From NCBI GenBank assembly GCA_964641275.1, contig CAZXMG010000029.1, positions 13,289-45,288 of the forward strand: a DNA stretch of 32,000 nt. Reading direction: 5' to 3'. This document shows, one piece after another, positions 6,453 through 32,000 of this stretch. Numbering within the stretch: the first letter of the stretch is position 1; every line of letters begins with the position of its first letter. Source of the stretch: an uncultured Polyangiaceae bacterium. Lineage in GTDB: Bacteria; Myxococcota_A; Polyangia; Polyangiales; Polyangiaceae. The notes beneath the pieces are model-generated. The model was not told where the DNA came from and ran no database searches. It saw only the letters and a list, made by a program, of their open reading frames with translations. A program made the translations under genes and the position numbers.

Positions 6453-8510
6453 CTAACCGCCGAACGAGAGCGGCAGCTCGAACCCGAGATCGCGCGAGGA
6501 AGTGCCCACCTCGAGCACGTACGACGCTGGCTCGAGCTCCCAGCCAGCGTCCGTCCAGATGGCGAGATCGCTCGCGGCCACCGTGATCTCGACCACCTCG
6601 CTCTGGCCCGCCTCGAGCAGGACGCGCTGGAAGCCTCGCAGGTCGCGGGGGGCGCGCTCGACGCTGCTGCCTTCGACGCGCACATACACCTGCACCACCT
6701 CGCTGCCGGTGCGGGCGCCGGTGTTGCTGACGCGCACGGCCACGGTGAGCTCGCCCTCGGCCGAGAGCTGGCTGGGGGTCACGCTCGCGTCCGACAGGCT
6801 GAAGCTGGTGTACGAGAGCCCGAAGCCGAACGGGAACTCCGGCTCGCTCGCGTTGGCGTCGAGGTGGCGGTAGCCGTGCAAGAAGCCGTAGCTGACCTCG
6901 AGGCTCTCGTGGTCGAACGTGGGCAGATCGGCCTCGCTGCGCGGGAAGGAGATGGGCAACCGGCCGCCGGGCTCCACGTCGCCGAACAGCACGTCCGCGA
7001 TCGCGTGGCCACCTTGGGTGCCGGGGTACCAGGCCATCAACAGCGCCTCGATCTCGTCCACGAACGGGCGCACGACGATCGCGCTGCCGGCCTCGAGCAC
7101 CACCACGGTGTTGTCGGACAGCGCAGCGACCGCGCTGATCAGCGCCTCGTCCTCGGCGTGGAGCGACAGCGTGTCGCGATCCCCGCCCTCGATGAAGAGG
7201 TCTTCGCCTTCGTCCGCGGAGGTGAGCCCGACCACGATCACCACCGCGTCGGCCGCGGCGATCTGCGCCTCGTCTGCGGCGCTGAGCGTCGGGCCGGGCA
7301 GGTGCACCACCTCGAGCGAGCCTGCCGCGGCTTGGATGCCGGCAAGCGGCGTGACCGGGCTCGTGGGGGTGACCGCGCTCGAGCCCAGATCGCCCAAGTT
7401 GGCCACATCCGCCAGCGCGCCCACCACCACCAGCGTGCCGCCGGAGCGGGAGAGCGGCAGCGTGCCCCCGTTCTTGAGCAGCACCATGCCTTGGCTGGCG
7501 GCCTCACGCGCGAGCGCCAGGTGCTCCTCGCTCTCCACCGCGTCGGGATCGAGCGCAGGCGGCATGAAGGCTGCGTACTCGGTCTTCTTGCGCACGATGC
7601 GGGTGACGGCCTCGTCGATCACCGCCTCGTCCACCTCGCCGGCGCGCACCGCGTCCACCAGCCCTTGCCCGAAGTAGTTGGGCGCCGGCATCTCGATGTC
7701 CAGCCCAGCGTTGGCGGCTTCGACGGTGCTGCGCGTGCCGAACACCCAGTCGGACTCCACGAAGCCGTCGAAGCCCCACTCGTCCTTGAGCAGATCGCGG
7801 AGCAACACCGGGTTCTCGCTGGAGAACTGGCCGTTGACCTGGTTGTACGCGCTCATCACGCTCGCGACCTTGGCGTCGACCACTGCGCGGCGAAAATGCG
7901 GCAGGTACACCTCGCGCAACGTGCGCTCGTCCACGGTCACGTTCACGTCGAAGCGGGTGTCCTCGATCGAGTTGCACGCAAAGTGCTTCACGCTGGCGAG
8001 CACGTGCTCTTGGGCGCCTTCGATGAACGCAGCACCCATCGCGCCGATGTGCACGGTGTCTTCGCCGTACGTCTCTTGCGCGCGGCCCCACGCGGGGTGG
8101 CGGAGCACGTTGATGGTGGGGGCCAGGAGCACGTTCGCTCCCTTGGCGGCCGCCTCGCGCCCGATGGCGCGACCCACGCGGCGCTCGAGCTCGGGATCGA
8201 AGCTCGCCCCACGCGACATCGCCACCGGGAAGGCCGTGGCCTTGCCGGCGCGCGCCCCGCGGGGGCCGTCCACCATACGAAATCCGGGGATCTTCAGCCG
8301 CGTGTTCTCCGGCGTGTGGAACAGATCGTCGATCGCCGCGAGCGAGCTGCCGTGCATCTGCTCCACCTTCTCCTCGAGGCTCATGGCCTGCACGAGCTCC
8401 TCGGGAGTGGCGGATCCAAACTGCGGCGTCTGCGGCGGGAGCGTCGCGCTGTCGTCGCCGCAGGAGAGCAGCAAGACGGTGCAGAGCGCTCGAGCGCCGA
8501 TCGTGCTCAT
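6453..8510 (-). CDS. Glycoside hydrolase family 3 beta-glucosidase (BglX-like), lipoprotein
   Basis: 685 aa. N-terminal MSTIGARALCTVLLLSC lipobox. GH3 hallmarks: KIPGFRMVDGPRG, LAPTINVLRHPAWGRAQETYGED, VKHFACNS, GFVESDW, plus the C-terminal alpha/beta sandwich and fibronectin-like region. Confidence 0.9.
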   Translation of the reverse strand: MSTIGARALCTVLLLSCGDDSATLPPQTPQFGSATPEELVQAMSLEEKVEQMHGSSLAAIDDLFHTPENTRLKIPGFRMVDGPRGARAGKATAFPVAMSRGASFDPELERRVGRAIGREAAAKGANVLLAPTINVLRHPAWGRAQETYGEDTVHIGAMGAAFIEGAQEHVLASVKHFACNSIEDTRFDVNVTVDERTLREVYLPHFRRAVVDAKVASVMSAYNQVNGQFSSENPVLLRDLLKDEWGFDGFVESDWVFGTRSTVEAANAGLDIEMPAPNYFGQGLVDAVRAGEVDEAVIDEAVTRIVRKKTEYAAFMPPALDPDAVESEEHLALAREAASQGMVLLKNGGTLPLSRSGGTLVVVGALADVANLGDLGSSAVTPTSPVTPLAGIQAAAGSLEVVHLPGPTLSAADEAQIAAADAVVIVVGLTSADEGEDLFIEGGDRDTLSLHAEDEALISAVAALSDNTVVVLEAGSAIVVRPFVDEIEALLMAWYPGTQGGHAIADVLFGDVEPGGRLPISFPRSEADLPTFDHESLEVSYGFLHGYRHLDANASEPEFPFGFGLSYTSFSLSDASVTPSQLSAEGELTVAVRVSNTGARTGSEVVQVYVRVEGSSVERAPRDLRGFQRVLLEAGQSEVVEITVAASDLAIWTDAGWELEPASYVLEVGTSSRDLGFELPLSFGG

Positions 8511-9487
8511 GGCGCGAGCGTGGCGCGCAGGCCATCGGCGAGCTGGGTTTCGGCGCGGAAGCCGAGCAGCTCGGCGGCGCGGCTCACCTCTGCGACCGAG
8601 CGCAAGATCTCCCCGGCGCGTGGTGCCTGGTGCCCGATGCGCGATGTGCCGCCAGAGAGCTCGACGATGGTCTTGGCCAGCTCGTTCACGGTGATCTCAC
8701 GGCCGGTGCCCACGTTCATCACCGCCCGGTCGGCGGCGTCGGACAGCGCCGCGGTCACGACCGCGCGGCTCACGTCCCCCACGTACACGAAATCGCGGGT
8801 CTGGCCGCCGTCGCCGAAGATGGTGATGTCCCGGCCGGCGCGCGCGCGGTCGGCGAAGATGGAGATCACGCCCGAGTACGGGCTGCTTGGATCTTGGCGC
8901 GGGCCGTACACGTTGAAGAAGCGCAGGGCCGTGGTCGGCACGCCATGAACTGCGGAGTAGTAGTGGAGCATGTGCTCCGAGGCGAGCTTGTCGATGCCGT
9001 ACGGCGAGACCGGGTGGCAGGTCGCCGACTCGCGCACCGGGAACGTATCGACGTCGCCGTACACAGCCGCGCTGGAGGCGAACACCACCTTCTTCACGCC
9101 GAACGCGCGCGCGTACTCCAGCACCTGTACCGTGCCCACGTAGTTGGTCTGCACGTCGACCAGCGGATTGTCGATCGACACGATCACCGATACTTGTGCA
9201 GCCAGGTGCACGATGCGCTCGACCGGCCCGTGCACCTTGGTGATCGGCGCGAGCGCGGCGAACAGTCCGTGGCTGACGTCCGTCGCGCAGATCTCGAGCG
9301 CCGGCTCGCTGCCGTCGAAGCCATGACGCGCGCGGTCTGCCCAGCGCGCCAGGTTCTGGCGCTTGCCGGTGGAGAAGTTGTCGAGCACCACCACGCGGCA
9401 GCCTTGCTCGATCAGTCGATCCACGGTGTGCGATCCAATGAAGCCGGCTCCGCCGGTCACCACCACGAGAGGGCGCTTGTTGCTCAC
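8507..9487 (-). CDS. NAD-dependent epimerase/dehydratase (extended SDR, GalE/UDP-sugar epimerase-like)
   Basis: VVVTGGAGFIGSH Rossmann motif, SSAAVYG, catalytic YGIDK (YxxxK). Its TGA (8509..8507) overlaps the GH3 ATG (8510..8508) as ATGA. Confidence 0.9.
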   Translation of the reverse strand: MSNKRPLVVVTGGAGFIGSHTVDRLIEQGCRVVVLDNFSTGKRQNLARWADRARHGFDGSEPALEICATDVSHGLFAALAPITKVHGPVERIVHLAAQVSVIVSIDNPLVDVQTNYVGTVQVLEYARAFGVKKVVFASSAAVYGDVDTFPVRESATCHPVSPYGIDKLASEHMLHYYSAVHGVPTTALRFFNVYGPRQDPSSPYSGVISIFADRARAGRDITIFGDGGQTRDFVYVGDVSRAVVTAALSDAADRAVMNVGTGREITVNELAKTIVELSGGTSRIGHQAPRAGEILRSVAEVSRAAELLGFRAETQLADGLRATLAP

Positions 9488-10113: not shown

Positions 10114-11043
10114 ATGGAAGCCGAACCCCCGTCCTCCCGCCCCACCCCCACCTCGAGAGCTCCATCCAAACCTCCGGGCTCGACCTGGCTCTCGATCGCC
10201 GCCCGGTCCGAGACCGGGCACGTGCGCTCCCATAACGAAGACGTGGCCTTCGTCGCCACCCCGGAGCGCGGTTGCCAGCTGCTCGGCGTGTGCGATGGGA
10301 TGGGCGGCGCCAACGCCGGCGAGGTGGCGAGCGCCTTGGCCGCGCGCGTGATCCAGTCCGAGCTCTCCCTGCGCGCAGGGGTTCCCTGGGAGCTCGCGCT
10401 CGAGGAGGCGCTGCGCGCAGCCTCGCTGACCATTCATGGTCGAGCCGAGCAGGAGCCGCGACTCAAAGGGATGGGGACGACGGCTACCGTGGCCTGTGTC
10501 ACCCAGGAGCGGCTGCTGGTGGCCCAGGTGGGAGACAGCCGCGCCTACCTCCTGCGCCAGGGCCGCCTGCGGCAGCTCACGCGCGATCAGACGCTGGTCC
10601 AGCACCTGGTCGATCGCGGCCAGCTCAGTGCGGAGCAGGCCAAGAGCTCGAACCTGAGCAACGTGATCTTGCAGGCGCTGGGCACCAACCCCGAGGTCGA
10701 CGTCGTGCTCACGGAGGACGAGGTACAGCCGGGGGACACGCTGTGCCTGTGCTCGGACGGGCTCTCCGGGGTGCTCGAAGATGCCACCATCGAGGCGGTC
10801 CTGCTCGCGACGGAGAGCGCAGAACAGGCCTGTCAGGAGCTCGTCGAACGCGCCCTCGACGCAGGCTCGACCGACAACGTCACGTGCGTGGTCGCGCGGG
10901 CAATCGGCCCTGGCCCGCGCCCGCCCCGCCAACCTTCGCCCAGCCTGCCGCCCGACCCCGAGCCGAGCGGCTCCGATGCGGCCGCGAGAGGCGCGCTCGA
11001 CGCTTCGCTCTGGTCGGCCTTGCGCGTGTGGTGGGCCCGCTGA
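10114..11043 (+). CDS. PP2C-family Ser/Thr protein phosphatase (Stp-like) with a Pro-rich C-terminal tail
   Basis: SETGHVRSHNEDV, GVCDGMGGANAGEVAS, GMGTTATVA, VGDSRAYL, LCSDGLSG and STDNVTCVV cover the PP2C motifs in order. Confidence 0.9.
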   Translation: MEAEPPSSRPTPTSRAPSKPPGSTWLSIAARSETGHVRSHNEDVAFVATPERGCQLLGVCDGMGGANAGEVASALAARVIQSELSLRAGVPWELALEEALRAASLTIHGRAEQEPRLKGMGTTATVACVTQERLLVAQVGDSRAYLLRQGRLRQLTRDQTLVQHLVDRGQLSAEQAKSSNLSNVILQALGTNPEVDVVLTEDEVQPGDTLCLCSDGLSGVLEDATIEAVLLATESAEQACQELVERALDAGSTDNVTCVVARAIGPGPRPPRQPSPSLPPDPEPSGSDAAARGALDASLWSALRVWWAR

Positions 11044-11088: not shown

Positions 11089-11985
11089 GTGCCCATGCGC
11101 CCGTTCTTCACCGCTTTGGCCGCCGCCTTCAGCCTGTCTTGTGCCGCCGCCGAGCCGCCGAGTGGGCTGGTGATCCTGGACGTGGCGCTACCGCAAGACC
11201 CGCTGGTGTCGGTCGCCGCGTTGCCCCCCGATCCCAACAGCCCCGTGGAGAGCGCGCAGGCCTCGCTCGAGGACTGCATCGCCGAGCTGCGCACCGAGCC
11301 GTTCGCGGACGTCGTCAGCACGGCCGAGGACGCCTCGGCCTACAACCTGGCGGTGCGCCGAGAGCTCGCGAGCCAGGTGGACGCCGCGCGCCGGGGCTAT
11401 CTCGAGCTGATCCAGGCGCAGCCGAAGTCCCGCTTCGTGCCGCTCGCTTACTTGGCGTTTGGCGAGCTGTTCCGCGACGAGGCGGCCAGCGACAACGCCA
11501 AACGCCCCCTCGCCATGCAGGCCTACGACGAGGTGCTGAAGTTCCCGCCCGCGCAGAACCCCGCCTATGGCGTGGCGTTGTTGCGTAGAGGCGACGTCGC
11601 AGAGGACTCTGCGCAAGCGCTGGATGCGCTGCTCAAAGCGCTGAGCGCCCCCGAGCTCGGAGCGTGCGCGGCCGCCGTCAAACGCGCGGCCCAGGAGCGG
11701 CTCGTGCCCGTGTACGCCTCCGTCGGAGATCCCGTGCGGGCGTTCGACTTCTTCTCGCGTTTGGCGAAGAAGGACGATCGTGAGCTCGCGGCCGCCTGGA
11801 CGGTGCGGCTTGCGCGGCATTGGTTCCGCGAGCAGCGCACCAAGGAGGCTGCCCTGGCCCTCGAGGGGATGGTGCGCGGCGCTCGACAGAGCTCGGACGC
11901 GATGTGTGGCGATGGGCTCAAGGTCGCGCTCGATCTTCAGGCTGGCTCGGTGGTGCGCGAGATCACCCTGCGCTGCGCCAAGTAG
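11089..11985 (+). CDS. Hypothetical lipoprotein, helical-repeat (TPR-like) appearance
   Basis: MPMRPFFTALAAAFSLSC lipobox; the remainder is alpha-helical with Ala/Leu-rich repeats (YLAFGELF..., AYDEVLKF...). High GC3. No specific family recognised. Confidence 0.65.
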   Translation: MPMRPFFTALAAAFSLSCAAAEPPSGLVILDVALPQDPLVSVAALPPDPNSPVESAQASLEDCIAELRTEPFADVVSTAEDASAYNLAVRRELASQVDAARRGYLELIQAQPKSRFVPLAYLAFGELFRDEAASDNAKRPLAMQAYDEVLKFPPAQNPAYGVALLRRGDVAEDSAQALDALLKALSAPELGACAAAVKRAAQERLVPVYASVGDPVRAFDFFSRLAKKDDRELAAAWTVRLARHWFREQRTKEAALALEGMVRGARQSSDAMCGDGLKVALDLQAGSVVREITLRCAK

Positions 11986-12035
11986 CCTGCCGAACAGGTG
12001 ATCGCCCGGCGCGGCTGGTGTAGCGTGAAGCCCTC

Positions 12036-12347
12036 ATGCGGCGCGCTCGTTACGCCCTCGCCCTGTCGATCTTGGGTTGTCTCCCGGTCTTGGCGTTGGC
12101 CTGCGACCAGTCCGGGCCGGGCTGTGAAGAGCTCGACCTCGATGGCTGCTACGCCACGCCTGGCTGCCAGTACATCGAGGAGCGCGACGTGTGCGCGCCG
12201 CCGAACGGGACCGGCTGCTTCTACGATGAAGAGTTCGGCTGCCCGGAGGGCACCACGCCGGAGGTCGTCCCTGGCGGCGACGGTCGCGGCGGCTGCGATC
12301 AGGCCCTGCGCTGCCTCGAAGGCGTCGCAGGGGGCGCCGCGAACTGA
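12036..12347 (+). CDS. Small Cys-rich lipoprotein (103 aa)
   Basis: MRRARYALALSILGCLPVLALAC lipobox. The mature part has 8 Cys, mostly as G-C dipeptides at ~8-residue spacing (PGCEE, DGCYA, PGCQY, DVCAP, TGCFY, FGCPE, GGCDQ, LRCLE). High GC3. Confidence 0.6.
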   Translation: MRRARYALALSILGCLPVLALACDQSGPGCEELDLDGCYATPGCQYIEERDVCAPPNGTGCFYDEEFGCPEGTTPEVVPGGDGRGGCDQALRCLEGVAGGAAN

Positions 12348-18496: not shown

Positions 18497-19828
18497 ATGA
18501 TCGTGATGAAGTTCGGCGGCAGCTCGGTGGCCGACAGAAAGCAGATCGACAAGGTCTTGGCCATCGTGAGGGCGCGCCTCTCCGAGCGGCCACTGGTGGT
18601 CTGCTCCGCGCACAAGGGCATCACCGACGCGCTGGTGCGTGCCGCGAAAGAGGCCGTGGCGGGACGTTACGATCCAGACGGCGTGATCGCGCGCCAACGC
18701 GCCGTCTTGCGCGAGCTCGGCGGTTCCGACGCTCTGCTCGACCCGATGTTCGAGGAGCTCGCTGGGTTGCTCCGAGGCATCCACCTGGTGCGTGAGCTGT
18801 CTCCGCGCAGCCTCGACTACGTGTCGAGCTTCGGTGAGCGCTGGAGCGTGCGCACGATCGCCGACTACTTCACCCGGAGCGGCCTCTCCGCGGCGGCGCA
18901 CGACGCGTGGGACCTGGGTTTCGTGACCAACCACGAGTTCGGCAGCGCGCGCCCCACGAGCGCGTTCCCCGCGGAGGCCAAGCGGCGCTATGCGGAGCTC
19001 GACGCAGATGTGGTGCCTCTGGTGACGGGCTTCGTCGGGCGCAGCGAGCAGGGCGAGATCACCACCGTCGGCCGCAACGGCAGCGATCTGACGGCCACGC
19101 TGTTCGGCGCGGCGCTGGGCGCAGCCGAGGTGCAGATCTGGAGCGACACCGATGGCGTGATGAGCGCCGATCCGAGCGTGGTGAAGGCGGCGCGCAACAT
19201 CCCAGTGATGTACTTCGAGGAGGCGGCGGAGCTGGCGTACTTCGGCAGTCGGGTGTTGCACCCCGCCACGCTTCTGCCGGCGATGGAGGCCAAGATCCCG
19301 GTGCGCGTGCTCAACACCAACCGGCCCGAGCACCCAGGCACGGTGATCCACGACACGGGCCGGCCCGCGGGCGAGCACGACGTGACGAGCATCGCGTACA
19401 AGGAGGGGCAGCTGGTCTTGACCATCACCTCCACCCGCATGTTCGGCGAGCTCGGCTTCCTCGGTCGCGTGTTCGAGGCCGCGGCCCGGCACGGCGTGGT
19501 GGTGGATGTCGTCACGACCAGCGAGGTTTCGGTCAGTCTCACGGGCAACGCCAAGGCCCCCATGCTGGCGCTCGCAGAAGAGCTGGCGCCGCTCGGCTCG
19601 GTGTCGCTGGCAGAGGGCAGGGCGATCCTCGTGGTCGTGGGCAAACACCTGGCTCGCAGGCCCGGGCTCGGCGCAGAGATCCTGGGCGCGGTCGCCAAGG
19701 AGGGCGTGAACATCGAAATGATCAGCCACGCCTTCGGCGCCATCAACTTGTCCCTGGTGGTGGGGGACGCCGACGTGGCCAAAACCGTCTCGGTGCTGCA
19801 CCGGGTGCTGTTCGAAGGTGCTGCTTGA
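18497..19828 (+). CDS. lysC: Aspartate kinase
   Basis: [13 protein letters not shown] kinase N-terminal motif, [39 protein letters not shown], and two C-terminal ACT-like regions (443 aa). Confidence 0.92.
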
Positions 19829-21909
19829 AGAACCGCTACGACGAGCAGGCGCGGGAGCAGGCCATCTCGGCGCTCGGCGAGGTCCCGCGGGATCTGGCGC
19901 TGCGCGTGTACACCTCTCGGCTGATCGGTCAGGACCACGATCTGGTGCTCCATGGTGGCGGGAACACCAGCGTGAAGGGGCGGTACCGCACCGTGCTCGG
20001 CGAGGAGCTCGAGTGCTTGTGGGTCAAGGGCTCTGGCTCGAGCCTGGATCGCGTCGGGCCGGGGGATTTCCCGGCCTTGGATTTGGCCTATCTGCGCAGG
20101 CTGCGCGGGCTCGAGCAGTTGACCGACGAGGAGATGGTCAACCAGCTGCGCACGCATCTGTTCGACGCGAGCGCGCCCAACCCGTCGGTCGAAGCGCTGC
20201 TGCACGCGTTCTTGCCGCACAAGTTCGTGGATCACTCCCATGCCGACGCGGTGTTGGTGCTCACCAACCAACCCGACGGCGAGGCGCTCATCCGCGAGGC
20301 GCTGGGCGCCGACGTCGCGATTTTGCCCTACATCATGCCGGGCTTCCCGCTGGCGCGGGCGGTCGCCGAGGTGGTCGAGCGGGCGCCACACGTGAAGGGC
20401 GTGGTGTTGATCAAACACGGGCTGTTCTCCTTCGGGGCGACCGACAAGGAGAGCTACGACCGCCACATCGAGCTGGTGGGCGCGTGCGAACAGCTGGCGC
20501 GCGCCAAGCGTCGGCCCGCGGTCTCGGCTGGCGCTGGGCCCGCGAGCGGACGTTTGGCGGAGATCGCCCCGATCTTGCGCGGCGCCTTGGCTGCGCCTCT
20601 GGCGACGCCGGCGCGGGGTTTTCAGCGCTGGGTGATGGAAGCGCGCACCAGCCCGGAGCTGTGCGCAGCGCTGGCCCGGCCCGACGCCGAGAGGCTGGCC
20701 AACACCGGTACGCTGACCCCGGACCACGCCATTCGCACCAAACCGTGGCCGTTGTTCCTCGGCGGCTGGGACCGGGCCCCGGACCTCGCGGCGTTCGTGC
20801 GCGATCGGGTGGCGCAGTATCGCGCGCGATACGACGCCTACTTCGAGTCCTGCCGCCACGGACGCAGCCTGAAGAAGCTCGACAGCGCGGCGCGCGTGGT
20901 GCTGGTGCCGGGGCTCGGCGCGCTCAGCTTCGGCGCCAGCAAGGCCGATGCGAGGATCGCGGCGGACATCACCGAGCACACCCTCAGGGCCAAAGCGATC
21001 GCCGAGGACGTGGGCAGCTACGAGTCGCTGAGCGACAGCGATCTGTTCGAGATGGAGTACTGGAGCCTGGAGCAGGCCAAATTGGGCAAGGCTGCGGAGA
21101 AGCAGCTCGCACGCCAGGTTGCGCTCGTCACCGGCGCTGCCGGCGCGATCGGACGCGGCATCGCGGAAGCAGTGTTGTCCGCGGGCGCCGTCGTCGCGCT
21201 GCTCGATCGCGAGGCCGCCGCCGTCGAGCAGCTGGCGAAGGAGCTGTGTGCGCGCTTCGGAGCCGGCGCGGCGCTGCCTCTCGCCGCCGACGTCAGCGAC
21301 GACGTCGCCATGCGCCGAGCGTTCGATCGCTGCGCGAGCGAGCTCGGCGGAGTCGATCTGGTCGTGCCCAACGCGGGCGTTGCGCTGGTGCGTCCAGTCA
21401 GCGAGCTCGGCACGGACGAGGCGCGGCGCGTCATGGATGTGAACTACCTCGGGGTGCTCACCACCCTGCGCGAGGCGGCGCGCATCTTCCGCGCGCAGGG
21501 CACCGGCGGCAACGTCGTGGTCAGCTCGTCCAAGAACGTGTTCGCGCCCGGCAAAGACTTCGGCGCCTACAGCGCGAGCAAGGCCGCCGCACACCAGCTC
21601 TCCAAGGTGGCGGCGATCGAGCTCGCCGCGATCGGCGTGAAGGTGAACCTGATCAACGCGGACGCGGTGTTCTCCCACGGCGAGACGCCCTCCGGCCTGT
21701 GGTCGGAGGTGGGCCCCGACCGCGCCAAGAGCCGGGGCCTCTCGCTGCCCGAGCTGTTCGACTTCTACCGGGACCGCAACCTGCTGAAGGCCCGCGTAGA
21801 GGCCCAACACGTCGGGGCCGCCGTCGTGTTCTTTGCCAGTGACGCGACCCCCACCACCGGGGCCACGTTGCCCATCGATGGCGGGATCGCGGAGGCCTTC
21901 CCTCGCTGA
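19825..21909 (+). CDS. Bifunctional class II aldolase / short-chain dehydrogenase (rhamnulose-1-phosphate aldolase/alcohol dehydrogenase-like)
   Basis: C-terminal 694 codons of track ORF 18907..21909. TTG 19825 overlaps the lysC TGA (19826..19828) as TTGA. The N-terminal aldolase-like half has [12 protein letters not shown] and [11 protein letters not shown]. The C-terminal SDR half has [19 protein letters not shown] and YSASKAA. Confidence 0.88.
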
Positions 21910-21946
21910 TCTTGCGGCGCGCGGCGGCCGCGCCTAGAGCCGTGGC

Positions 21947-22948
21947 ATGCAGGTCGAGAGCGAGCGCAAGGTCGGCTTGGGCCGAGACGAGGTCAAGGGC
22001 ACCATGGCGGCGTACGCCAAGACGTACGAGCGCGAGGAGCCGGACGATCGCTTCGCCAAGTACGCCACGACCACCAAGCAGTACTACGATCTCGTCACCG
22101 ACTTTTACGAGTACGGCTGGGGCCAGTCGTTCCACTTCGCCGTGCGTCGGCGAGGAGAGAGCCTGAAGCAGTCCATCGCCGAGCACCAGCGCTACCTCGC
22201 CGAGCGGCTCGGGCTCTCCGCCGGCAAGCGGGCGATCGACCTCGGCTGCGGCGTGGGCGGCCCCATGCGCGCCGTGGCACGCATCACCGGCGCGAACGTC
22301 ACCGGTGTCAACATCAACGCCTATCAGGTGGAGCGCGCGCGTCGCTACAACCAGCGGGAGGGTCTCGGCGCGCAATGCGACGTGATCGAGTCCGACTTCC
22401 TGAAGGTGCCGCTGCCCGATGCGTCGTTCGACGCGGCCTACGCGTTCGAGGCCACCTGCCACGCTCCCGACAAGCGGAGCGTGTTCGGCGAGGCCGCCCG
22501 CCTGCTCAAGCCCGGCGGACTGTTCGCGGTCTACGAGTGGTGCATCACGCCGGTGTTCGAGCCAGAGAACCGAGAGCATCGCCGCATTCGGCACGGCATC
22601 GAGAAGGGCAACGCGCTGCCCAGCCTGGCCACCTTCGACGAGGTGAAGCAGGGCCTCGTGGACAGCGGCTTCGAGCTCTGCGAGGCCAAAGATCGCGCGC
22701 CGGAATGCCACGCCGAGCTGCCTTGGTACTCCTCGCTCGACGAGGTCTCCGTGCGCAACTTGCCGCGCACCCCCGCCGGCCGCGTGGTCACCTCGGCCAT
22801 GAGCTCGGTGCTCGAGAAGCTGCGCATCGCCCCCAAGGGCACGCGCGAGGTCAGCGACTTCTTGAACGAGTGTGCGGACGCGCTCGTGGGGGGCGGCAAG
22901 CTCGGCATCTTCACGCCGATGTACTTCGCCCTCGCGCGGAAGAAGTAG
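21947..22948 (+). CDS. Sterol 24-C-methyltransferase-like SAM-dependent methyltransferase (ERG6/SMT1 family)
   Basis: Collinear with yeast Erg6 as I recall it: YYDLVTDFYEYGWGQSFHF (SMT region I; YEYGWGQSFHF = nt 22106..22138), SAM motif AIDLGCGVGGP, AYAFEATCHAP, LKPGGLFAVYEW, LPWY, and the C-terminal GIFTPMYFALARKK. Confidence 0.85.
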   Translation: MQVESERKVGLGRDEVKGTMAAYAKTYEREEPDDRFAKYATTTKQYYDLVTDFYEYGWGQSFHFAVRRRGESLKQSIAEHQRYLAERLGLSAGKRAIDLGCGVGGPMRAVARITGANVTGVNINAYQVERARRYNQREGLGAQCDVIESDFLKVPLPDASFDAAYAFEATCHAPDKRSVFGEAARLLKPGGLFAVYEWCITPVFEPENREHRRIRHGIEKGNALPSLATFDEVKQGLVDSGFELCEAKDRAPECHAELPWYSSLDEVSVRNLPRTPAGRVVTSAMSSVLEKLRIAPKGTREVSDFLNECADALVGGGKLGIFTPMYFALARKK

Positions 22949-22952
22949 TCGC

Positions 22953-23831
22953 TCAGTTCGCGATCAGCAGCAGCACCTTCACGGCCGGGTTGCCCTTCTC
23001 GTCCTTGGCCTCGGCCACGGCGAGGCCGATGCGCAGCGTGCTCAGCGCGTTCACCCCGCCTGGCGGCGTGTACTCGCTCGCCGCCACCACCCGCTGACCG
23101 GTGCAGATCAAGCCGTTGGTCTGCACCCCGGCTTGCTTGGCACGGCTCAGCGAGCGCTTGCCGATCTCGGCGAGCTGATCGGGCGGGACGTCGTCGTCCA
23201 GGGCGCCCACCTCGCGCTCGGCGATGCCGTTCAACGTGTCGTCCTCGATGACCTTTCGGCCCCGGCTCAAGATGCCGAGCACCGTGGCGCGCGCTTCTGC
23301 CGGCGTCTGCTTCTCGACCGGACGCGCGAACACCTGCACGAACAGCAGGTTGGTCGGCGTCAAAAGGCCCCCGCGCACGATGCCGACCCCGACGTGGGTG
23401 ATGTCTTTGGCCATCAGGTTTTCGTAGTGGCCGGGGCTTTTGAGCAGGCCGTCTTGTGCCGTACTCACGTCTGCGGCCTCGGCCAGGTTCTCACGGCCGA
23501 TCGCCACGGGCACCTCTGCGCGCGCGAGCCGGTCCTCGACCGACCCGCTGCTGGGAGAGTCATGCGCGAAGAAGCGGTTCTTCGACATGTCGTCCGCGTG
23601 AAAGCGCGCGACGTCGGCCAGCCGCACGTCGTAAGCCAGCGCCGGGAGGCCACGCGCGGCGCGGTCGCGGTTGATCCGCTCGAACATGGCACGCTCGAGC
23701 GGCGCGAGGTTGGGGTCCTGGGGCACCGTGGCGAGACCGCTCGAGCTGCCGCACGCCAGCAGCGCGGACGCCGTCAGGCCAAGCAGCAGGTCGCGACGTG
23801 GGATGAAGGAGGGATCGAGCGCGTTCGGCAC
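22953..23831 (-). CDS. CAP (SCP/PR-1, YkwD-like) domain lipoprotein with an extra C-terminal domain
   Basis: N-terminal IPRRDLLLGLTASALLAC (twin-Arg-like signal plus lipobox). CAP motifs: RINRDRAARGLPAL, DMSKNRFFAHDSP, SPGHYENLM, THVGVG. About 130 aa of unassigned C-terminal sequence. Confidence 0.8.
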   Translation of the reverse strand: MPNALDPSFIPRRDLLLGLTASALLACGSSSGLATVPQDPNLAPLERAMFERINRDRAARGLPALAYDVRLADVARFHADDMSKNRFFAHDSPSSGSVEDRLARAEVPVAIGRENLAEAADVSTAQDGLLKSPGHYENLMAKDITHVGVGIVRGGLLTPTNLLFVQVFARPVEKQTPAEARATVLGILSRGRKVIEDDTLNGIAEREVGALDDDVPPDQLAEIGKRSLSRAKQAGVQTNGLICTGQRVVAASEYTPPGGVNALSTLRIGLAVAEAKDEKGNPAVKVLLLIAN

Positions 23832-23871
23832 GGCGTAAGGATGGGCGGCCGGACCCCGTTTGGCAACGAGC

Positions 23872-24864
23872 TCAGCCCGGCTTCATCAGCTTCTTGGCCA
23901 GCTCCTCCCCTCGCAGAGTGGCGACCTCGACCTCGATGTCGACGTCGATCTCCACCTCCCAGGGCTCATCGCTGGGCCTGAGCGTGGGCTCCTTCTGCAC
24001 GGGCATCTCGGCCACGGCGCGCAGAACAGACCACATCTTGCCCACGGTCGCGAAGCGGTCCTGAGGGTCAGCCGCCAGCGCCTTCTCCACCCAGTCGTCG
24101 ATCGTTTGCGGCAGCTCACTGCGCAGCTTCTTCAGGCTGGGGCGTGCGCCACGGGTGACCTCGATCAAGAAGCGGTCGAGCGGCTGCTTGGGGTCGAACG
24201 GCGGTGCCCCCGCCAGCGCGCGGAAGATCACCGCCCCGAACGAGTACACGTCGATGCGGCGATCGGCATCTTTGGCGCGCCCGCGCCAAATCTCTGGCGC
24301 AATGTAGCCAGGAGACCCTGCGATCATGCCCTCTTGGGTCAGCGCGGTGGCGTTGAGATCCTTGGCCAATCCGAAGTCCAGCAGGCGGACGCCGCCCCGG
24401 GTCATGCTGTCGAGCACGAAGATGTTCCCGGGCTTGATGTCGCGGTGAACGATGCCCTGGTCGTGTGCAATATCCAGTGTCTCGGCGATGGGACCCAGCA
24501 GGTTGACGATGCGCTTCAGCTCGACGCGCGCGCCGTGCTTCTCCAGCTCGCGCAAGTAGGCCTCGAGATCTCGGCCCGCGAGCAGCTCCATCACGATGTA
24601 GAGCTCGCCCGCCTTGGCCTTGTTGAACGCGAAGATCTGCGCGGCGCTGGTGCCGCTGAGCGCGCCCATGGCGCGTGCCTCGCGGTGCATGCGGGTCTTG
24701 AAGCCGGCGTCGGCAGCGAGGTCGGCCCCCAGGCACTTGATCGCGACCCTGGAGCCGAGCATCGAGTCCTTGGCTGCGTACACCACGCCGTGGGCTCCTT
24801 GACCCACGACACCGGTGACCTCGTAACGATCGTCGATCAGGTCACCTACCGCGTAACTGCTCAT
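23872..24864 (-). CDS. Hanks-type Ser/Thr protein kinase, kinase domain only (330 aa)
   Basis: GQGAHGVVY glycine loop, VAIK, HRDIKPGN catalytic loop, DFG, GSPGYIAPE. Confidence 0.9.
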   Translation of the reverse strand: MSSYAVGDLIDDRYEVTGVVGQGAHGVVYAAKDSMLGSRVAIKCLGADLAADAGFKTRMHREARAMGALSGTSAAQIFAFNKAKAGELYIVMELLAGRDLEAYLRELEKHGARVELKRIVNLLGPIAETLDIAHDQGIVHRDIKPGNIFVLDSMTRGGVRLLDFGLAKDLNATALTQEGMIAGSPGYIAPEIWRGRAKDADRRIDVYSFGAVIFRALAGAPPFDPKQPLDRFLIEVTRGARPSLKKLRSELPQTIDDWVEKALAADPQDRFATVGKMWSVLRAVAEMPVQKEPTLRPSDEPWEVEIDVDIEVEVATLRGEELAKKLMKPG

Positions 24865-24904
24865 CTTGCGCGCTCCTCACGACGATCCCATCTTAGCAAC
24901 CGCT

Positions 24905-24941
24905 GGTCTCAGCTCGAACTTTGTCGTCTCGCGCTGAGACC
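24905..24941. other. 9-bp perfect inverted repeat in the 167-bp divergent intergenic region
   Basis: ggtctcagc (24905..24913) pairs with gctgagacc (24933..24941), with a 19-nt loop. It lies between the kinase start (24864) and the choice-of-anchor gene start (25032). Candidate operator or 5'-UTR structure. Confidence 0.3.
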
Positions 24942-25031
24942 GCCCGTGTCCAGGCCTGGGACGCGAGCACCGAGGAGGGGCCAGCGGCCGCAGACTTGGC
25001 GGCGCATCGCGCTCGGCACGGCGTTTGAAAG

Positions 25032-26459: not shown

Positions 26460-27992
26460 GTGGCGCTCGAGAAGCGATACGCCTCGCCGGCACTGATGGC
26501 GTCTGTGTTCGTGATCGCGACCAGCGGTCTCGTCTACCAGCTCGTCGCCGGTACGCTGGCTAGCTACGTGCTGGGCGACAGCGTCGCGCAGTTCAGCTTC
26601 GTGATCGGTCTGTACCTGTTCGCGATGGGGATCGGCTCGTACCTGTCCAAGCTGATCGAGCGCGATCTGTTGGTACGGTTCGTCGAGATCGAGCTGGCGC
26701 TGGCGCTCGCGGGCGGGTTGTCTGCGCCCATCCTGTTCCGCGTGTACACGTCGTTCGGTGCCTTCCGCGCAGCGCTGTATGGCCTCGTGGTGGTGATCGG
26801 CACCCTGGTCGGCCTGGAGATCCCGCTGCTCCTTCGGCTGCTCAAGTTCAACTTGGATCTCAAGGACCTGGTCGCGCGCGTGCTGACGCTCGACTACATC
26901 GGCGCGCTGGTCGGCAGCGTGCTGTTTCCAGCGGTGCTGTTGCCGCGCTTCGGCATCCACCAGACCAGCCTGTTGTTCGGCGCGATGAACGCGGTCGTCG
27001 CGCTGGTCGGGACCTTCCTCTTTCCGCTGGATCGCGCGGTGGTGCTGCGTCTCCGTGCTGCCAGCGTGTTCGTGATCATCGCGCTCGGCTTCGTGGGGCT
27101 GTGGATCGGCGACGTCATCAAGGCCTCCGAGACGTTGTACTTCGGCTCGCCGATCGTGCACGTCAGCCAGTCGCCGTATCAGCGGGTGGTGATCACGCAG
27201 TCCAAGCGCACCACGCGCCTGTTCCTCAACGGCAACCTGCAGTTCAGCTCCGACGACGAGTACCGGTACCACGAGGCGCTCGTCCACCCTGCGGTCGCTG
27301 CGTTGGGGCGCACCCCTCGCCGGGTGTTGGTGCTCGGCGGTGGTGACGGGCTCGCCGTGCGAGAGCTCTTGCGCTATCCGGAGGTGGAGACGATCCACGT
27401 GATCGACCTGGACGCGGCCGTGACGGATCTGTTCCAAAAGAATCCGCTCGGTCGGGGCCTCAACGGCGACGTGCTCAACGACCCGCGCGTCAAGATCGAG
27501 AACCAAGATGCCTTCCGCTTCTTGGAGGAGTCGACCGAGCCGGCCTTCGACTTGGCCATCGTGGACTTCCCCGATCCCTCGAACTACTCCGTGGGAAAGC
27601 TGTACACCGACGCGTTCTATGCCATGTTGCGAGAGCGTCTCTCGACGCGAGGCTTGGCCGTGGTGCAATCGACCTCTCCGGGCTACGCCCGCAAGACCTT
27701 CTGGTCCATCGTGACCACGATCGAAGCCGCCGGCTTCGTGGCCTTGCCCTACCACGCGTACGTGCCGAGCTTCGGCGATTGGGGCTTCGTGCTCGCGGGG
27801 GGGCCGGGCCTACAGCAACCCTCGGCTCTCAGACTGCCGAGCGGGACGTTGCGCTTCCTGGACGACGTCACGCTCGGTCCGCTGTTCTCGTTCCCCCCGG
27901 ACACGGCGCGGGTCCCCGCGGACGTCAACCGCCTCAACGACCAAAAGTTGGTCAGCCTGTACACCTCGGAGTGGGGTGAGTGGAGCAGGTGA
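26460..27992 (+). CDS. speE: Membrane-anchored polyamine aminopropyltransferase (spermidine/spermine synthase-like)
   Basis: GTG start. The N-terminal ~200 aa forms about 7 hydrophobic helices. The C-terminal domain has YHEALVHP, VLVLGGGDGLAVRE, IDLD, IVDFPDPS and VVQSTSP. Confidence 0.9.
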   Translation: MALEKRYASPALMASVFVIATSGLVYQLVAGTLASYVLGDSVAQFSFVIGLYLFAMGIGSYLSKLIERDLLVRFVEIELALALAGGLSAPILFRVYTSFGAFRAALYGLVVVIGTLVGLEIPLLLRLLKFNLDLKDLVARVLTLDYIGALVGSVLFPAVLLPRFGIHQTSLLFGAMNAVVALVGTFLFPLDRAVVLRLRAASVFVIIALGFVGLWIGDVIKASETLYFGSPIVHVSQSPYQRVVITQSKRTTRLFLNGNLQFSSDDEYRYHEALVHPAVAALGRTPRRVLVLGGGDGLAVRELLRYPEVETIHVIDLDAAVTDLFQKNPLGRGLNGDVLNDPRVKIENQDAFRFLEESTEPAFDLAIVDFPDPSNYSVGKLYTDAFYAMLRERLSTRGLAVVQSTSPGYARKTFWSIVTTIEAAGFVALPYHAYVPSFGDWGFVLAGGPGLQQPSALRLPSGTLRFLDDVTLGPLFSFPPDTARVPADVNRLNDQKLVSLYTSEWGEWSR

Positions 27993-28026: not shown

Positions 28027-29511
28027 GTGACTGCGGGGTCCCCGTTCGATCGTCAGGCGCCGTGCCCGAACTGCGGCGCGCCGATGACGTTCAAGTTTGC
28101 CGGCGCGCGCGCGCAGGTCTGCAAGTACTGCAAGTTCCTGGTTGCCCGCACCGACCGTGGCTTGGTGCGCATGGGTCAGGTGGCAGATCTGGCCGAGATC
28201 CCTTCGCCGTTGGCCATGGGTGTCACGGGCACCTGGGAGCGGCGCCGCTTCGAGGTCGACGGCCGCGTACAGCTCGACCGCGTCGCGGCGGCCTCGGCAC
28301 CTTGGCAGGAATTTTTCCTGCGCATGTTGGACAACGACGACGGCGTCTGGATCGCCTTCGCCCAAGGCCGTTGGTACTGGACCAAAGAGGTCCAGCCCAC
28401 GCCGCCGCTGCCGCCGCTCGGCACGCTCAGGCCGGGGGTCCCGATCCAGCTGCCCCACGCCGGTCAGGTCACCATCGCAGAGGTCGGTCGGCGCCGGGTG
28501 ACCTCGCTCGAAGGCGAGCTGCCCAAGGTGGCGTTGCCTGAGGCGGTCACGCCCTACGCAGACTTCGGCGGGCCAGGCGGGGTGTTCGGAACCCTCGACT
28601 ACGGCGACGGCCAGTCCATCCCGCCAACGTTGTACCTCGGTCGCCAGTTCGACCCAGCGACCTTCAAGCTCGACTCGGGTCAGCAGCTCGACGCGCCTCA
28701 AGCCGAGGTCAGCGCGTGCACCTGCCCCAACTGCGGCGGCAGCCTCCCGCTGGTCGCGCCGGGCACGACCGAGCGAATCGTCTGCAAGTACTGTGGCACC
28801 GTCAGCGACGTGAAGAGCGGCGGCGCGCTCTCGGCCTTGGGCCAAGCGCCACGCCCGCCCATGGAGCCGTTCATCCCACTCGGCGCCGAGGGCGAGCTGC
28901 GCGGCCGCAAGGTGATCATGATCGGCTTCGTGATCCGCGGCACCTGGGTCGAGGGCGGTCACTACACCTGGCGGGAGTACTTGCTCTATGCCGGCCCCAG
29001 CGAGGGCTACATCTGGCTGACCGAAGAGGACAACCACTGGCAGCTGGTCACGCCCATCCCGCCGGGCGAAGCGCAGATCGCGGGCAACCTGCACTACGCC
29101 GGCAAGCAGTACACGTTCAAACAGTCGGTGCAGGCCGCCGTCGAGTACGTGGTCGGCGAGTTCTATTGGAAGGTGGCGGTCGGCGAGAGCGTCGAGGCGA
29201 TCGAGTTCAAGGGTCCCGACGGCAACGTCTCCGTCGAGAAGGATCAGAACGAGGTCAACATGTCGTTCTGTCAGGAGATCAACCCGCAAGAGATCGGCCA
29301 CGCCTTCAAGATCGCTCCGCCGCCGAGCGCCTCCATGTTCTCCGAGGTGGGGGAGGGGGGCGCCCCGAGCAGCACCGTTCGCACCCTGATCTGGGTGGCG
29401 ATCATCATCGTGATCATCCTGTTCCTGGTCGCCGCCGACTGCGGCAGCGGCAGCTCGAGCGGTGGATCGAGCGGGGGCGTGTACGTGAGCCCAGGCTTCG
29501 GCGGCAAGTAG
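28027..29511 (+). CDS. DUF4178-like protein: two zinc-ribbon plus beta-domain repeats and a C-terminal TM helix with a Gly/Ser tail
   Basis: GTG 28027 is preceded by taggatg, an AGGA about 8 nt upstream. Ribbon 1 is CPNCG...CKYC (28063..28131); ribbon 2 is CPNCG...CKYC (28723..28793). The second repeat carries the W.EY.L......WL signature (YTWREYLLYAGPSEGYIWLTEEDNHWQL). TM segment LIWVAIIIVIILFLVAA is followed by GSGSSSGGSSGG. Confidence 0.8.
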   Translation: MTAGSPFDRQAPCPNCGAPMTFKFAGARAQVCKYCKFLVARTDRGLVRMGQVADLAEIPSPLAMGVTGTWERRRFEVDGRVQLDRVAAASAPWQEFFLRMLDNDDGVWIAFAQGRWYWTKEVQPTPPLPPLGTLRPGVPIQLPHAGQVTIAEVGRRRVTSLEGELPKVALPEAVTPYADFGGPGGVFGTLDYGDGQSIPPTLYLGRQFDPATFKLDSGQQLDAPQAEVSACTCPNCGGSLPLVAPGTTERIVCKYCGTVSDVKSGGALSALGQAPRPPMEPFIPLGAEGELRGRKVIMIGFVIRGTWVEGGHYTWREYLLYAGPSEGYIWLTEEDNHWQLVTPIPPGEAQIAGNLHYAGKQYTFKQSVQAAVEYVVGEFYWKVAVGESVEAIEFKGPDGNVSVEKDQNEVNMSFCQEINPQEIGHAFKIAPPPSASMFSEVGEGGAPSSTVRTLIWVAIIIVIILFLVAADCGSGSSSGGSSGGVYVSPGFGGK

Positions 29512-29520
29512 GCGTTCGGC

Positions 29521-31410
29521 TCAACCGGCCACCACGTCGCGTTTGCGAGGCTTGAGCATCCCAGAACGGAATAGCGCGATCACCGTTCCGATCAGCACCA
29601 CGTTGGTCACGCCGGCGATCAGCTCTCCGTGACTCGGCGCTGTCAACGCAGCGGCGGCGCCAACCCCGGTGATCGCGGCGCACAGTCCGAGCCAGGGTCG
29701 CGCCATGATGGCGATCACGGCGAACGTTCCGCTCAGCACCACGTTCGAGATCGCGTACGCGACGTCGGCGCCAACGCCCGCCCTGTACAACACCGCGACG
29801 GCGAACGTCGCCGCACACAGCTGCGCGACGACCGCGAACGCGATGCGACCGGTGATCGTGTTGGTGATCACGTGTTTACGGAAGACCAACACCAGCACGA
29901 CCACGGCGCTGGTGACGAATGCGTCGCCGAGCAGAACGTCGCGTGTTGGCACCACCGCCTCCGTTCCGCCGTAGACGATCCAGCTGATGGTGCCGCCGAC
30001 CAGGATCGTCAGCGCGATCCAGGTGAACCCCCACGCTCCGGAGCTGGGGTCCATCTCGCGCTGCAGCGCGATCACGCCCTCGGCTCGTCGCTCGTTGTCG
30101 CTCACGAGCCGCTCCAAGTCTGCCACCCGCGCCTCCAGATCGGGCGGTGGGTCGGGGATCTGCTGGAGCAACGCGCGCGCTGCCGCTGGGCTCTTCTGCC
30201 CCAGCTCCCGCTCGAGGTCGAGCAACAGGACACGCCGCGCGCCACGCTCCACCAGCGGATTGTCCGACCACTGCTGCTTGGCCAGGGCAAACGCGAAGCG
30301 GGCTTCGGCTAGGCGGCTCGCGGCATCCGCGGACAACAGCGCGACGAGCCCCGCTTCCACTTGCGACAAGCTGGCCTCGGCGGATCGCGCGAGCGCAACG
30401 CTACCCTTGTGCCGCAGGTGCTCTCGCAGTCGCTTGCGGAAGCTCACCACGCCGTCGAGCCGTTCGCGGGGCTCGCGCCGCGTGGCGAGGTTGCACAGCG
30501 CCGCAAGATCGCTCGGCACCTCCGGCGGGTAGGCCACGGGCTCCGAGGCGACGGCCGCGAGCAGCACCTCCAGCACGCCTCGGCCGGAGTGGCGAGGGGC
30601 GCCCGTCAAGAGCTCGTGCAGCGTTGCCCCCAGCAGGTACACGTCCGTCAGCTCGCTGAGCAGCTCCGGCCGCCCGTCCACCATCTCCGGCGCCATGTAC
30701 TGCGGAGTGCCCACCAAGTTGGGCTCGCCGGGCCTGGCCGGCAACCGCGCCGCGATGCCCCAATCGAGCAGGTACACAGCGCCGTACGAGCCGACCATGA
30801 TGTTGTCGGGCTTGATGTCGCGATGGATGATGCCCGACGCGTGGGCCAGCTCCAGCGCATCGCACACTTGGAGCAACACCTCGACGAACGTGCCGGTGCG
30901 GTCACCGTGTGTTTCGAGCAGGCTCGCCCAGGCGCTGTGCTGCGCGTCGTCGAGCAACGCGCGCAGGGTCGTGCCCTGGACTCGCTTCATCACCAACACT
31001 GCGCGCCCCGCCTCGTCCAGGCCCAACGCGTGGATGGGCACCACGTTCGGGTGTTCGAGCGCCCCCATGATCCTCGCCTCGTGGAGCAGGGCCTGCTGGG
31101 CGTCGCTCTCGCTGCCCAAGTGCGCGACCTTCACGGCGACCTCGCGCGAAAGCGAGTGCTGCTCCGCCAGGTGCACCACGCCCATACCACCCGTTCCCAG
31201 CGTGGAGAGCAGCCGGATCTCGCCGTCCCGCGCCCCCGCTCCGTCGGCCGTCGCGAGCGCGATCTGGGGGAGCGTACTCGTGGTGCCCCCGTCCTCGTGC
31301 ATCGGTCGGGTGCCGCCAAACCCGCGCAACGTCATGCCAGCGTGGAGCCCAGGCAGCGTCGGCATGCTTGCCCAGGTGGAAACATCGATCTCGCCCAAGC
31401 GCTCGCGCAT
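29521..31410 (-). CDS. Hanks-type Ser/Thr protein kinase fused to a C-terminal polytopic membrane domain
   Basis: GTGGMGVVH, VAVK, HRDIKPDN, DWG (a DFG variant), GTPQYMAPE. A helical linker is followed by about 6 hydrophobic helices. ATG 31410 preferred; the track start 31542 would overlap the upstream hydrolase gene by 76 nt. Confidence 0.85.
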   Translation of the reverse strand: MRERLGEIDVSTWASMPTLPGLHAGMTLRGFGGTRPMHEDGGTTSTLPQIALATADGAGARDGEIRLLSTLGTGGMGVVHLAEQHSLSREVAVKVAHLGSESDAQQALLHEARIMGALEHPNVVPIHALGLDEAGRAVLVMKRVQGTTLRALLDDAQHSAWASLLETHGDRTGTFVEVLLQVCDALELAHASGIIHRDIKPDNIMVGSYGAVYLLDWGIAARLPARPGEPNLVGTPQYMAPEMVDGRPELLSELTDVYLLGATLHELLTGAPRHSGRGVLEVLLAAVASEPVAYPPEVPSDLAALCNLATRREPRERLDGVVSFRKRLREHLRHKGSVALARSAEASLSQVEAGLVALLSADAASRLAEARFAFALAKQQWSDNPLVERGARRVLLLDLERELGQKSPAAARALLQQIPDPPPDLEARVADLERLVSDNERRAEGVIALQREMDPSSGAWGFTWIALTILVGGTISWIVYGGTEAVVPTRDVLLGDAFVTSAVVVLVLVFRKHVITNTITGRIAFAVVAQLCAATFAVAVLYRAGVGADVAYAISNVVLSGTFAVIAIMARPWLGLCAAITGVGAAAALTAPSHGELIAGVTNVVLIGTVIALFRSGMLKPRKRDVVAG

Positions 31411-31466
31411 AGGACGCTGAAGATAGAGGAGCCGAAGAAACGCGTCGCGCGTGCCGAGCGGATCGG

Positions 31467-32000
31467 TCAGCCCCGCTGGCGCAGCCAGCTCGCGATCCGC
31501 TCGAGTACGGCCGGTGCCATCGTCGTCTCGATCGATGTCCACTCCTGCATGGTGCCGAGAGTGGCCGGCTGAAACAGGTGGTTCAAGCCGACCAGCACCT
31601 CCGTGGTCACGTCGGGGTTCCTGCCTCGGTCGAGCGCAGCGCGGATGGCGGCGATGTTCTCCTCACCTGGCACCTGGAGGTCCACCGTGCCCCCGAGCGC
31701 CAGCACGGGGCAACGCACCTCTTCGAGAGCCCGCGCGGGCTCCGATCGGATGACGTCGCGCATGGCTGGTGACGCCACCTGCAACATCGCGGCGTCGACC
31801 ATCGCGCTGCGCTGCAGCCAGCCCGGGCGCGCGCTCGGGGTGAGCCCGATGATCGCGTCGACGTGCTCCTCCACCAGCTTGCGCAGCGCCCGGTCGTCCG
31901 CGCCGGCCAACACCGCTTCGAGCACCCGCTTCTGGCCGCTGTTGCCCAGCGCGAGGCGCTCGGCCGACACGTTCTGGGCCCGCAAGGTCTGGTCCATCTG
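31467..32000 (-). CDS. Alpha/beta hydrolase, C-terminal part (gene continues beyond the right edge)
   Basis: CPVLALGGTVDLQVP and the catalytic-His region VGLNHLF near the C-terminus are typical of alpha/beta hydrolases. 176 aa is too short for the fold, so the ATG at 31997 is probably internal. Confidence 0.7.
   Translation of the reverse strand, partial: QMDQTLRAQNVSAERLALGNSGQKRVLEAVLAGADDRALRKLVEEHVDAIIGLTPSARPGWLQRSAMVDAAMLQVASPAMRDVIRSEPARALEEVRCPVLALGGTVDLQVPGEENIAAIRAALDRGRNPDVTTEVLVGLNHLFQPATLGTMQEWTSIETTMAPAVLERIASWLRQRG

Follow-up and report, generated by a model that had tools for sequence, protein, structure and literature searches.

Can an uncultured myxobacterium methylate the side chain of sterols at C-24, and from where would its sterols come? 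The question is raised by a gene in a 32,000-nucleotide stretch of DNA from an uncultured Polyangiaceae bacterium (contig CAZXMG010000029.1 of GCA_964641275.1; the whole stretch is called the window here), whose product is, on every sequence criterion available, a member of the sterol C-24 methyltransferase (SMT) or SMT/ERG6 family. C-24 alkylated steranes (ergostane, stigmastane and 24-isopropylcholestane) are read as fossils of eukaryotes, an inference that each credible bacterial SMT weakens slightly. The window gene likely encodes a catalytically competent, vertically inherited bacterial SMT of a Polyangiaceae-type myxobacterium, its activity being predicted from conserved residues and relatives. 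Experiments published in 2023 had already demonstrated functional SMTs in bacteria, and the value of this gene is as a candidate for expression and targeted isolation rather than as a new concept. What it adds is an SMT that is resident and maintained by selection, in a myxobacterial family of soil or wastewater type and, in principle, open to cultivation; it also draws attention to a Polyangiaceae-specific SMT clade with two paralogue lineages.

Sequence features and predicted activity

The initial annotation described a full-length SMT/ERG6 gene at this locus, and several results bear the description out. First, the open reading frame (ORF) is exact, and a domain (HMM) search identifies both Methyltransf_11 and Sterol_MT_C (Table 1). 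Second, BLASTP aligns residues 28–332 of the product with yeast ERG6 at 43% identity over 314 aa (E 5e-92); the ERG6 sequence used carries the published residue at 28 of the 28 positions checked (bioRxiv 10.64898/2025.12.19.695621). Third, the motifs cited in the annotation are all present where it placed them, far beyond chance, and Region I matches the pattern Y-E-[YF]-G-W-G-x-x-F-H-F. In a 19-sequence alignment (A1), the equivalents of ERG6 G84, W85, G86, F89, H90 and F91 are all kept, and Phe is absent at positions 81 and 83. Fourth, the residues conserved in all functionally verified SMTs, as listed by Brown & Welander 2025 (bioRxiv 10.64898/2025.12.19.695621), are identical in the window SMT at 25 of 25 positions (alignment A1, ERG6 numbering).

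Real genes in the window were chosen by GC3 pattern (GC content at third codon positions) and Pfam matches. Overlapping long ORFs of up to 1000 aa, such as 18907..21909 (+), 18988..21810 (-) and 19818..21842 (+), have high GC2 and low GC1 and were rejected as artefacts of 69% GC. Amid these overlapping high-GC ORFs, the GC1/2/3 profile of the SMT stop-to-stop frame (0.65/0.46/0.92) is the signature of a real gene, and the N-terminus aligns with homologues.

Table 1. Coordinates in the window of the SMT gene, of its motifs and domains, and of other genes discussed in the text.
Feature	Position	Strand	Evidence or remark
Sterol C-24 methyltransferase gene (SMT/ERG6 family, EC 2.1.1.41)	21947..22948	+	ATG to TAG, 333 aa; ORF and translation, Pfam, BLASTP
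Region I (sterol-binding) YEYGWGQSFHF, residues 54-64	22106..22138	+	ERG6 81/83 = Tyr54/Tyr56
Region II SAM-binding loop DLGCGVGGP (DxGxGxxGP), residues 98-106	22238..22264	+	columns invariant in alignment A1
Class I SAM methyltransferase domain, Pfam Methyltransf_11, residues 98-194	22238..22528	+	E 4e-24
Region III AFEATCHAP, residues 166-174	22442..22468	+	includes Glu168, equivalent of ERG6 E195
Region IV LKPGGLFAVYEW, residues 187-198	22505..22540	+	includes Gly190, equivalent of ERG6 G217
Asn222, equivalent of ERG6 position 249	22610..22612	+	mapped through alignment A1
Sterol_MT_C domain, Pfam PF08498, residues 274-332	22766..22942	+	E 8e-24, 83.9 bits vs cutoff 21.7
C-terminal block FTPMYFALARKK, residues 322-333	end of 21947..22948	+	translation
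Aspartate kinase	18497..19828	+	TGA stop overlaps TTG start of next gene (TTGA)
Bifunctional class II aldolase / short-chain dehydrogenase	19825..21909	+	NCBIfam NF006194, 831.7 bits vs cutoff 686; Pfam
CAP/YkwD-family protein, predicted lipoprotein-type signal (…LLACGSS)	22953..23831	-	Pfam CAP PF00188, 67.4 bits; YkwD family below cutoff
Ser/Thr protein kinase	23872..24864	-	86% identical copy at same position in L084
Long-form polyamine aminopropyltransferase	26496..27992	+	NF002956, 608 bits vs cutoff 472; unrelated to SMT
DUF4178 protein	28027..29511	+	follows aminopropyltransferase; unrelated to SMT
Eukaryote-like Ser/Thr kinase	29521..31542	-	
PP2C phosphatase	10114..11043	+	

Methyltransferases outside the SMT family cover only part of the protein. 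Non-sterol methyltransferases align only with residues ~40–250 of the window SMT, far under NCBIfam cutoffs, and the top matches in a PDB sequence search (MitM, RebM, TleD and AtmM) cover the methyltransferase core alone. No NCBIfam model is passed, the top one being sarcosine/dimethylglycine methyltransferase at 65 bits against a cutoff of 550, which points to a bacterial annotation library without an SMT model. A confident AlphaFold2 model of the window SMT (pLDDT 89.6, pTM 0.87) displays the alternating strands and helices typical of a Rossmann-like fold. The nearest solved folds in the PDB are generic class I methyltransferases (TM 0.55–0.65), and a genuine SMT structure was not found in the PDB copy searched. 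AtmM, MitM, RebM, TleD, geranyl diphosphate C-methyltransferase and cyclopropane fatty acid synthase share this Rossmann-type S-adenosylmethionine (SAM) fold at 16–26% identity; however, these enzymes match the core only, lack Sterol_MT_C and Region I, and act on other substrates. The SMT-specific C-terminal half of the window protein (residues 196–333) matches 762 of 1.84 billion 50%-identity clusters at E<=1e-3; the SMT family is compact although well represented in uncultured bacteria.

The proposed reaction follows that of characterized family members. SAM would be bound in the Rossmann-fold domain by Region II, as in ERG6 and plant SMT1, and the side chain of a Δ24 sterol would be gripped by Region I on one side and the Asn222-bearing loop on the other. 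Transfer of the methyl group to C-24 would give 24-methylene or 24-methyl (C28) sterols, and a second methyl may be added to give C29 products, while 24-isopropyl (C30) sterols are not expected. Brown & Welander 2025 (bioRxiv 10.64898/2025.12.19.695621) found that 24-isopropyl sterols require Gly at ERG6 position 249, that Phe at position 81 or 83 boosts C30 yield, and that G249N, G249A, G249S and G249T mutants retain C28 and C29 sterols and form no C30. The window SMT carries neither Gly249 nor Phe81 or Phe83; it has Asn222, Tyr54 and Tyr56 at these sites (alignment A1). The combination of Tyr at 81/83 and Asn at 249 leads to a prediction of one, possibly two methylations without propylation, and the behaviour of mutants of a different bacterial SMT, taken as an analogy, argues for this outcome. 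The residue pattern likewise argues against 24-isopropyl sterols, the geologically most contentious product.

Comparison with named enzymes fits a non-propylating window SMT. It resembles ERG6 in that the alignment runs near to the C-terminus, Regions I–IV are kept, and Tyr occupies positions 81 and 83 as in the single-methylating yeast enzyme; unlike ERG6, it has neither an N-terminal extension of ~50 residues nor a C-terminal one of ~15 residues, and its residue at 249 is Asn rather than Asp. The propylating SMTs of a Chlamydiae sp. metagenome-assembled genome (MAG) and of an Aplysina aerophoba symbiont share the family and conserved core, but they have Gly249 with Phe81 and/or Phe83, the first of which is the residue described as necessary for C30 and is lacking here. 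Among the closest known parallels are SMT 1 and 2 of a Sandaracinus MAG, which, with the other tested MAG SMTs, have the family, the domain pair and the 25 conserved residues in common with the window SMT. The Sandaracinus and window hosts are both uncultured Myxococcota, and SAM-dependent C-24 methylation to C28/C29 sterols is predicted alike for the two. The tested Sandaracinus SMTs, however, lie in a sterol gene cluster, whereas the window SMT lies outside one and belongs to a separate clade.

A Polyangiaceae clade and its residence in bacterial genomes

In a neighbour-joining tree of 110 sequences (297 columns, 100 bootstraps), the window SMT falls within a 23-member clade that is composed of Polyangiaceae only (99/100 bootstrap) and takes in every Polyangiaceae-labelled MAG sequence retrieved. 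Two lineages are apparent within it. Subclade A (90/100) contains the window SMT, L084, P0010 and several metagenomic sequences, and subclade B contains L004–L007, L100, P0017, P0020 and P0021. ERG6 position 83 is Phe in subclade B and Tyr, Ile or Met in subclade A (Tyr in the window). The Polyangiaceae MAG STL-MYX18 (GCA_046351325.1) carries two SMT paralogues, L087/P0010 and L088/P0026, one from each subclade, which indicates that the duplication is old. The pair of lineages recalls plant SMT1 and SMT2, which belong to the same family, the best eukaryotic database match being an Actinidia cycloartenol C-24 methyltransferase (47%); the bacterial duplication is nevertheless independent of the plant one. 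It is conceivable, though doubtful, that the subclade A and B paralogues divide the first and second methylation between them as SMT1 and SMT2 do, and that this lineage will yield the first isolate proven to alkylate sterol side chains, an idea that owes its appeal to the culturability of Polyangiaceae. If this proves true, such an isolate would supply the evidence named as missing by Brown et al. (PMC10070321).

Sequence identities also qualify the term 'eukaryote-type' used in the initial annotation. Family membership stands, but the label is misleading: the nearest relatives of the window SMT are all bacterial or metagenomic, at 50–86% identity, and the best eukaryotic sequences reach 43–47%. 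The deep node between eukaryotic and bacterial SMTs is left open by published trees (PMC10070321, PMC8237579).

Could the gene nonetheless be a eukaryotic contaminant, a very recent eukaryotic import, or a decaying and functionless relic? The family is best known from eukaryotes, and some bacterial homologues are inactive in vitro (bioRxiv 10.64898/2025.12.19.695621). However, composition, context and selection all speak for a bacterial gene. The window is ~69% GC throughout and gene-dense, with overlapping bacterial genes, and the SMT has a GC3 of 0.925 against 0.82–0.94 in ten flanking genes, in agreement with the earlier observation that it does not differ from them. An identical protein (P0001) occurs in one NCBI record and in three independent Logan assemblies, where its gene is flanked as in the window, and the flanking genes encode bacterial proteins (aspartate kinase, a YkwD-like protein and myxobacterial-type kinases). 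On bacterial contigs of 272 kb and 1.29 Mb, orthologues share gene order with the window. On the longer contig (GCA_964269625.1), an 83%-identical SMT is followed by a CAP protein (62%), a kinase (86%) and a choice-of-anchor-L protein. Between the window SMT and its 83%-identical orthologue, dN/dS is ~0.24 (pN 0.12, pS 0.39), a sign of purifying selection, and the distance to any eukaryotic sequence noted above is itself at odds with a recent transfer. Contamination or recent import from a eukaryote is thus excluded for practical purposes, and the whole set of explanations, a relic included, is extremely improbable. The matching GC3, the shared gene order, the low dN/dS and the Polyangiaceae-only clade instead support the view, already expressed in the initial annotation, that the SMT gene is native and long resident in a bacterial genome.

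Bacterial SMTs, sterol genes and substrate supply

Bacterial SMTs are no longer a rarity with few tested members, as the initial annotation had them; that statement is outdated. Sparse presence in myxobacteria was reported by Hoshino & Gaucher 2021 (PMC8237579). Brown et al. 2023 (PMC10070321) found 7,966 SMT homologues in JGI metagenomes and assayed 24 bacterial SMTs in vitro, of which 20 were active, two enzymes of a Sandaracinus MAG among them. The authors regarded marine myxobacteria as the best candidates for de novo production. Ten further bacterial SMTs, four of them active, were added by Brown & Welander 2025 (bioRxiv 10.64898/2025.12.19.695621), which brings the two studies together to 24 active enzymes among 34 tested. 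A scan of GTDB species representatives (185,579 genomes) identified at least 584 SMT-encoding stretches in bacterial genomes, the closest among the matches listed being 58% identical to the window SMT. The best 80 of these matches (L004–L083) span Myxococcota, Alpha- and Gammaproteobacteria, Chloroflexota, Latescibacterota, Verrucomicrobiota-type orders and others. All 80 come from MAGs and none from a cultured isolate, which agrees with the published lack of a sterol-alkylating isolate.

Gene neighbourhoods tie this bacterial family firmly to sterol metabolism. Of ~85 other bacterial SMT loci, 33–40 have homologues of oxidosqualene cyclase (OSC), squalene epoxidase, CYP51, Rieske oxygenase, 3β-hydroxysteroid dehydrogenase (3β-HSD) and ERG24 no more than 10 kb from the SMT. 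The gene for P0036, 54% identical to the window SMT, overlaps the 3' end of an OSC gene, at the end of an operon-like run that comprises a squalene synthase–squalene epoxidase (SQS-SE) fusion, 3β-HSD, Rieske, HMG-CoA reductase, P450, OSC and SMT. Among related loci with compact sterol operons, L094 (1..11023) shows this run, with an SQS-SE fusion of 1200 aa and an SMT start that overlaps the OSC end, and L098 (1210..8022) has a compact sterol operon as well. L093 (1519..15202) contains a complete myxobacterial sterol cluster, with FAD_binding_4, amine-oxidase-type and ERG4/24 genes in addition.

A separate observation concerns the many non-myxobacterial SMT loci in Dehalococcoidia, Alphaproteobacteria and Gammaproteobacteria MAGs. 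In these, the OSC motif DCTAE occurs in adjoining stop-to-stop ORFs of 1150–1600 aa, for example at L026 (11039..14518, -), L027 (4770..9590, -) and L047 (5983..10230, -). The DCTAE-containing ORFs are consistent with the fused squalene monooxygenase/OSC genes that Brown et al. 2023 (PMC10070321) note in their Methods.

Several points weigh against the prediction that the window SMT is an active sterol methyltransferase. First, 10 of the 34 bacterial SMTs were inactive in vitro on desmosterol or 24-methylenecholesterol, and 4 of these 10 kept all conserved residues (bioRxiv 10.64898/2025.12.19.695621). Second, side-chain-alkylated sterols have not yet been shown from any cultured bacterium (PMC10070321), and sterol genes are sparse among Polyangiaceae (PMC12004948). 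Third, the 32-kb window holds no homologue of OSC, squalene epoxidase, CYP51, Rieske oxygenase, 3β-HSD-type reductase or ERG4/24. This result, obtained with Pfam on the ORFs taken as real, precomputed Pfam for 14790–30830, and tblastn with nine proteins of the L093 sterol cluster, upholds the initial annotation, which had reported squalene epoxidase, OSC and demethylase as absent. Fourth, all eight visible contexts of the Polyangiaceae clade (the window, L084, L087, L088/L007, L089/L004, L005, L006 and L100) are free of sterol genes up to 10 kb from the SMT. Fifth, an OSC of the same organism was not found: among the best 120 matches to a Polyangium-MAG OSC, none combines the source pattern of P0001 with the samples of P0001.

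Individual candidates were rejected in the course of these searches. A weak 3β-HSD match in Pfam might mark the epimerase at 8510..9487 as an SdmB-like 3β-HSD, but this protein scores far better as a GalE/sugar-nucleotide enzyme and is missed by the L093 HSD seed. P0193, P0216, P0141 and P0171 as same-organism OSCs, picked for a source pattern like that of P0001 or for their long ENA/NCBI contigs, and P0036, P0091 and P0028 as a second SMT paralogue of the same organism, all come from other samples.

Absence of nearby sterol genes is what would be seen if an active SMT resided in an organism without sterol synthesis and methylated sterols that it obtained from eukaryotic prey or from its surroundings. 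All eight clade contexts and the outcome of the OSC search agree with this, as does the sparse occurrence of OSC in Polyangiaceae (PMC12004948), and there is a precedent in a Chlamydiae MAG, whose SMT is fully active in a genome without other sterol genes and for which exogenous sterols have been proposed as substrate (PMC10070321). However, absence within 10 kb is uninformative about the remainder of the genome, which in a myxobacterium probably measures ~10 Mb, and myxobacterial sterol genes are often dispersed. No documentation of myxobacterial sterol uptake was found in the literature consulted, and several Polyangiaceae and Sandaracinaceae synthesise sterols, with cholesterol made by cultured Minicystis rosea, Sandaracinus amylolyticus and Polyangium aurulentum (PMC12004948). 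Published work fits synthesis as well as uptake. Dependence on imported sterols appears unlikely. Since sterol-making Polyangiaceae and Sandaracinaceae are known, an OSC pathway elsewhere in the genome is somewhat more likely than uptake to supply the sterols on which the predicted methyltransferase would act.

The same isolation from sterol genes bears on whether the substrate is a sterol at all. An SMT-family enzyme may have switched from sterols to some other compound that ends in an isopropylidene group, for example squalene or a different triterpenoid, as is the case for SMT-like triterpene methyltransferases in the alga Botryococcus braunii. The Polyangiaceae clade stands apart in the tree and is in no case associated with sterol genes, in contrast to the 33–40 of ~85 loci described above, and its two old paralogue lineages would permit functional divergence. 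The window SMT nonetheless keeps every one of the residues shared by active SMTs, the whole Region I motif included, and Pfam detects no terpene synthase or squalene gene nearby in the window. We know of no bacterial precedent for an SMT-family enzyme of such specificity, and consider this explanation very unlikely; methylation of a sterol at C-24 remains the favoured prediction.

Neighbouring genes

Two genes precede the SMT on the same strand. The aldolase/short-chain dehydrogenase gene ends 37 nt before the SMT start, and co-transcription of the aspartate kinase and aldolase/dehydrogenase genes with the SMT is possible; a promoter and terminator scan around the SMT gene gave no matches. The arrangement recurs in STL-MYX18 (L087, 5777..9222), where an aspartate kinase (68%) and an aldolase/dehydrogenase (64%) precede the 62%-identical SMT P0010. 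A functional link between the aspartate kinase and the SMT is not shown by this recurrence.

Downstream, the CAP/YkwD gene is convergent with the SMT, and 4 nt separate the two stop codons. Sterol binding is known among eukaryotic CAP proteins, for example yeast Pry1 and plant PR-1. The tail-to-tail pairing of CAP and SMT genes recurs only in the 83%-identical relative L084 (CAP at 11185..12081, -), and no match to the CAP neighbour was found at the other ~85 SMT loci, even by iterative profile search. A functional tie of this neighbour to sterols was rejected, the pairing being confined to the window and L084, and the adjacency is probably plain local synteny.

Genes for VgrG-like proteins (Phage_GPD/Phage_base_V) lie a few kb from the SMT at three other loci of the clade, namely L087 (13961..15418), L088 (5189..7660) and L100 (8491..9915), and none is present in the window; the proximity may be a coincidence. 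The 32 kb of the window also encode a PP2C phosphatase and two eukaryote-like Ser/Thr kinases, a set that is typical of myxobacteria and consistent with the Polyangiaceae assignment.

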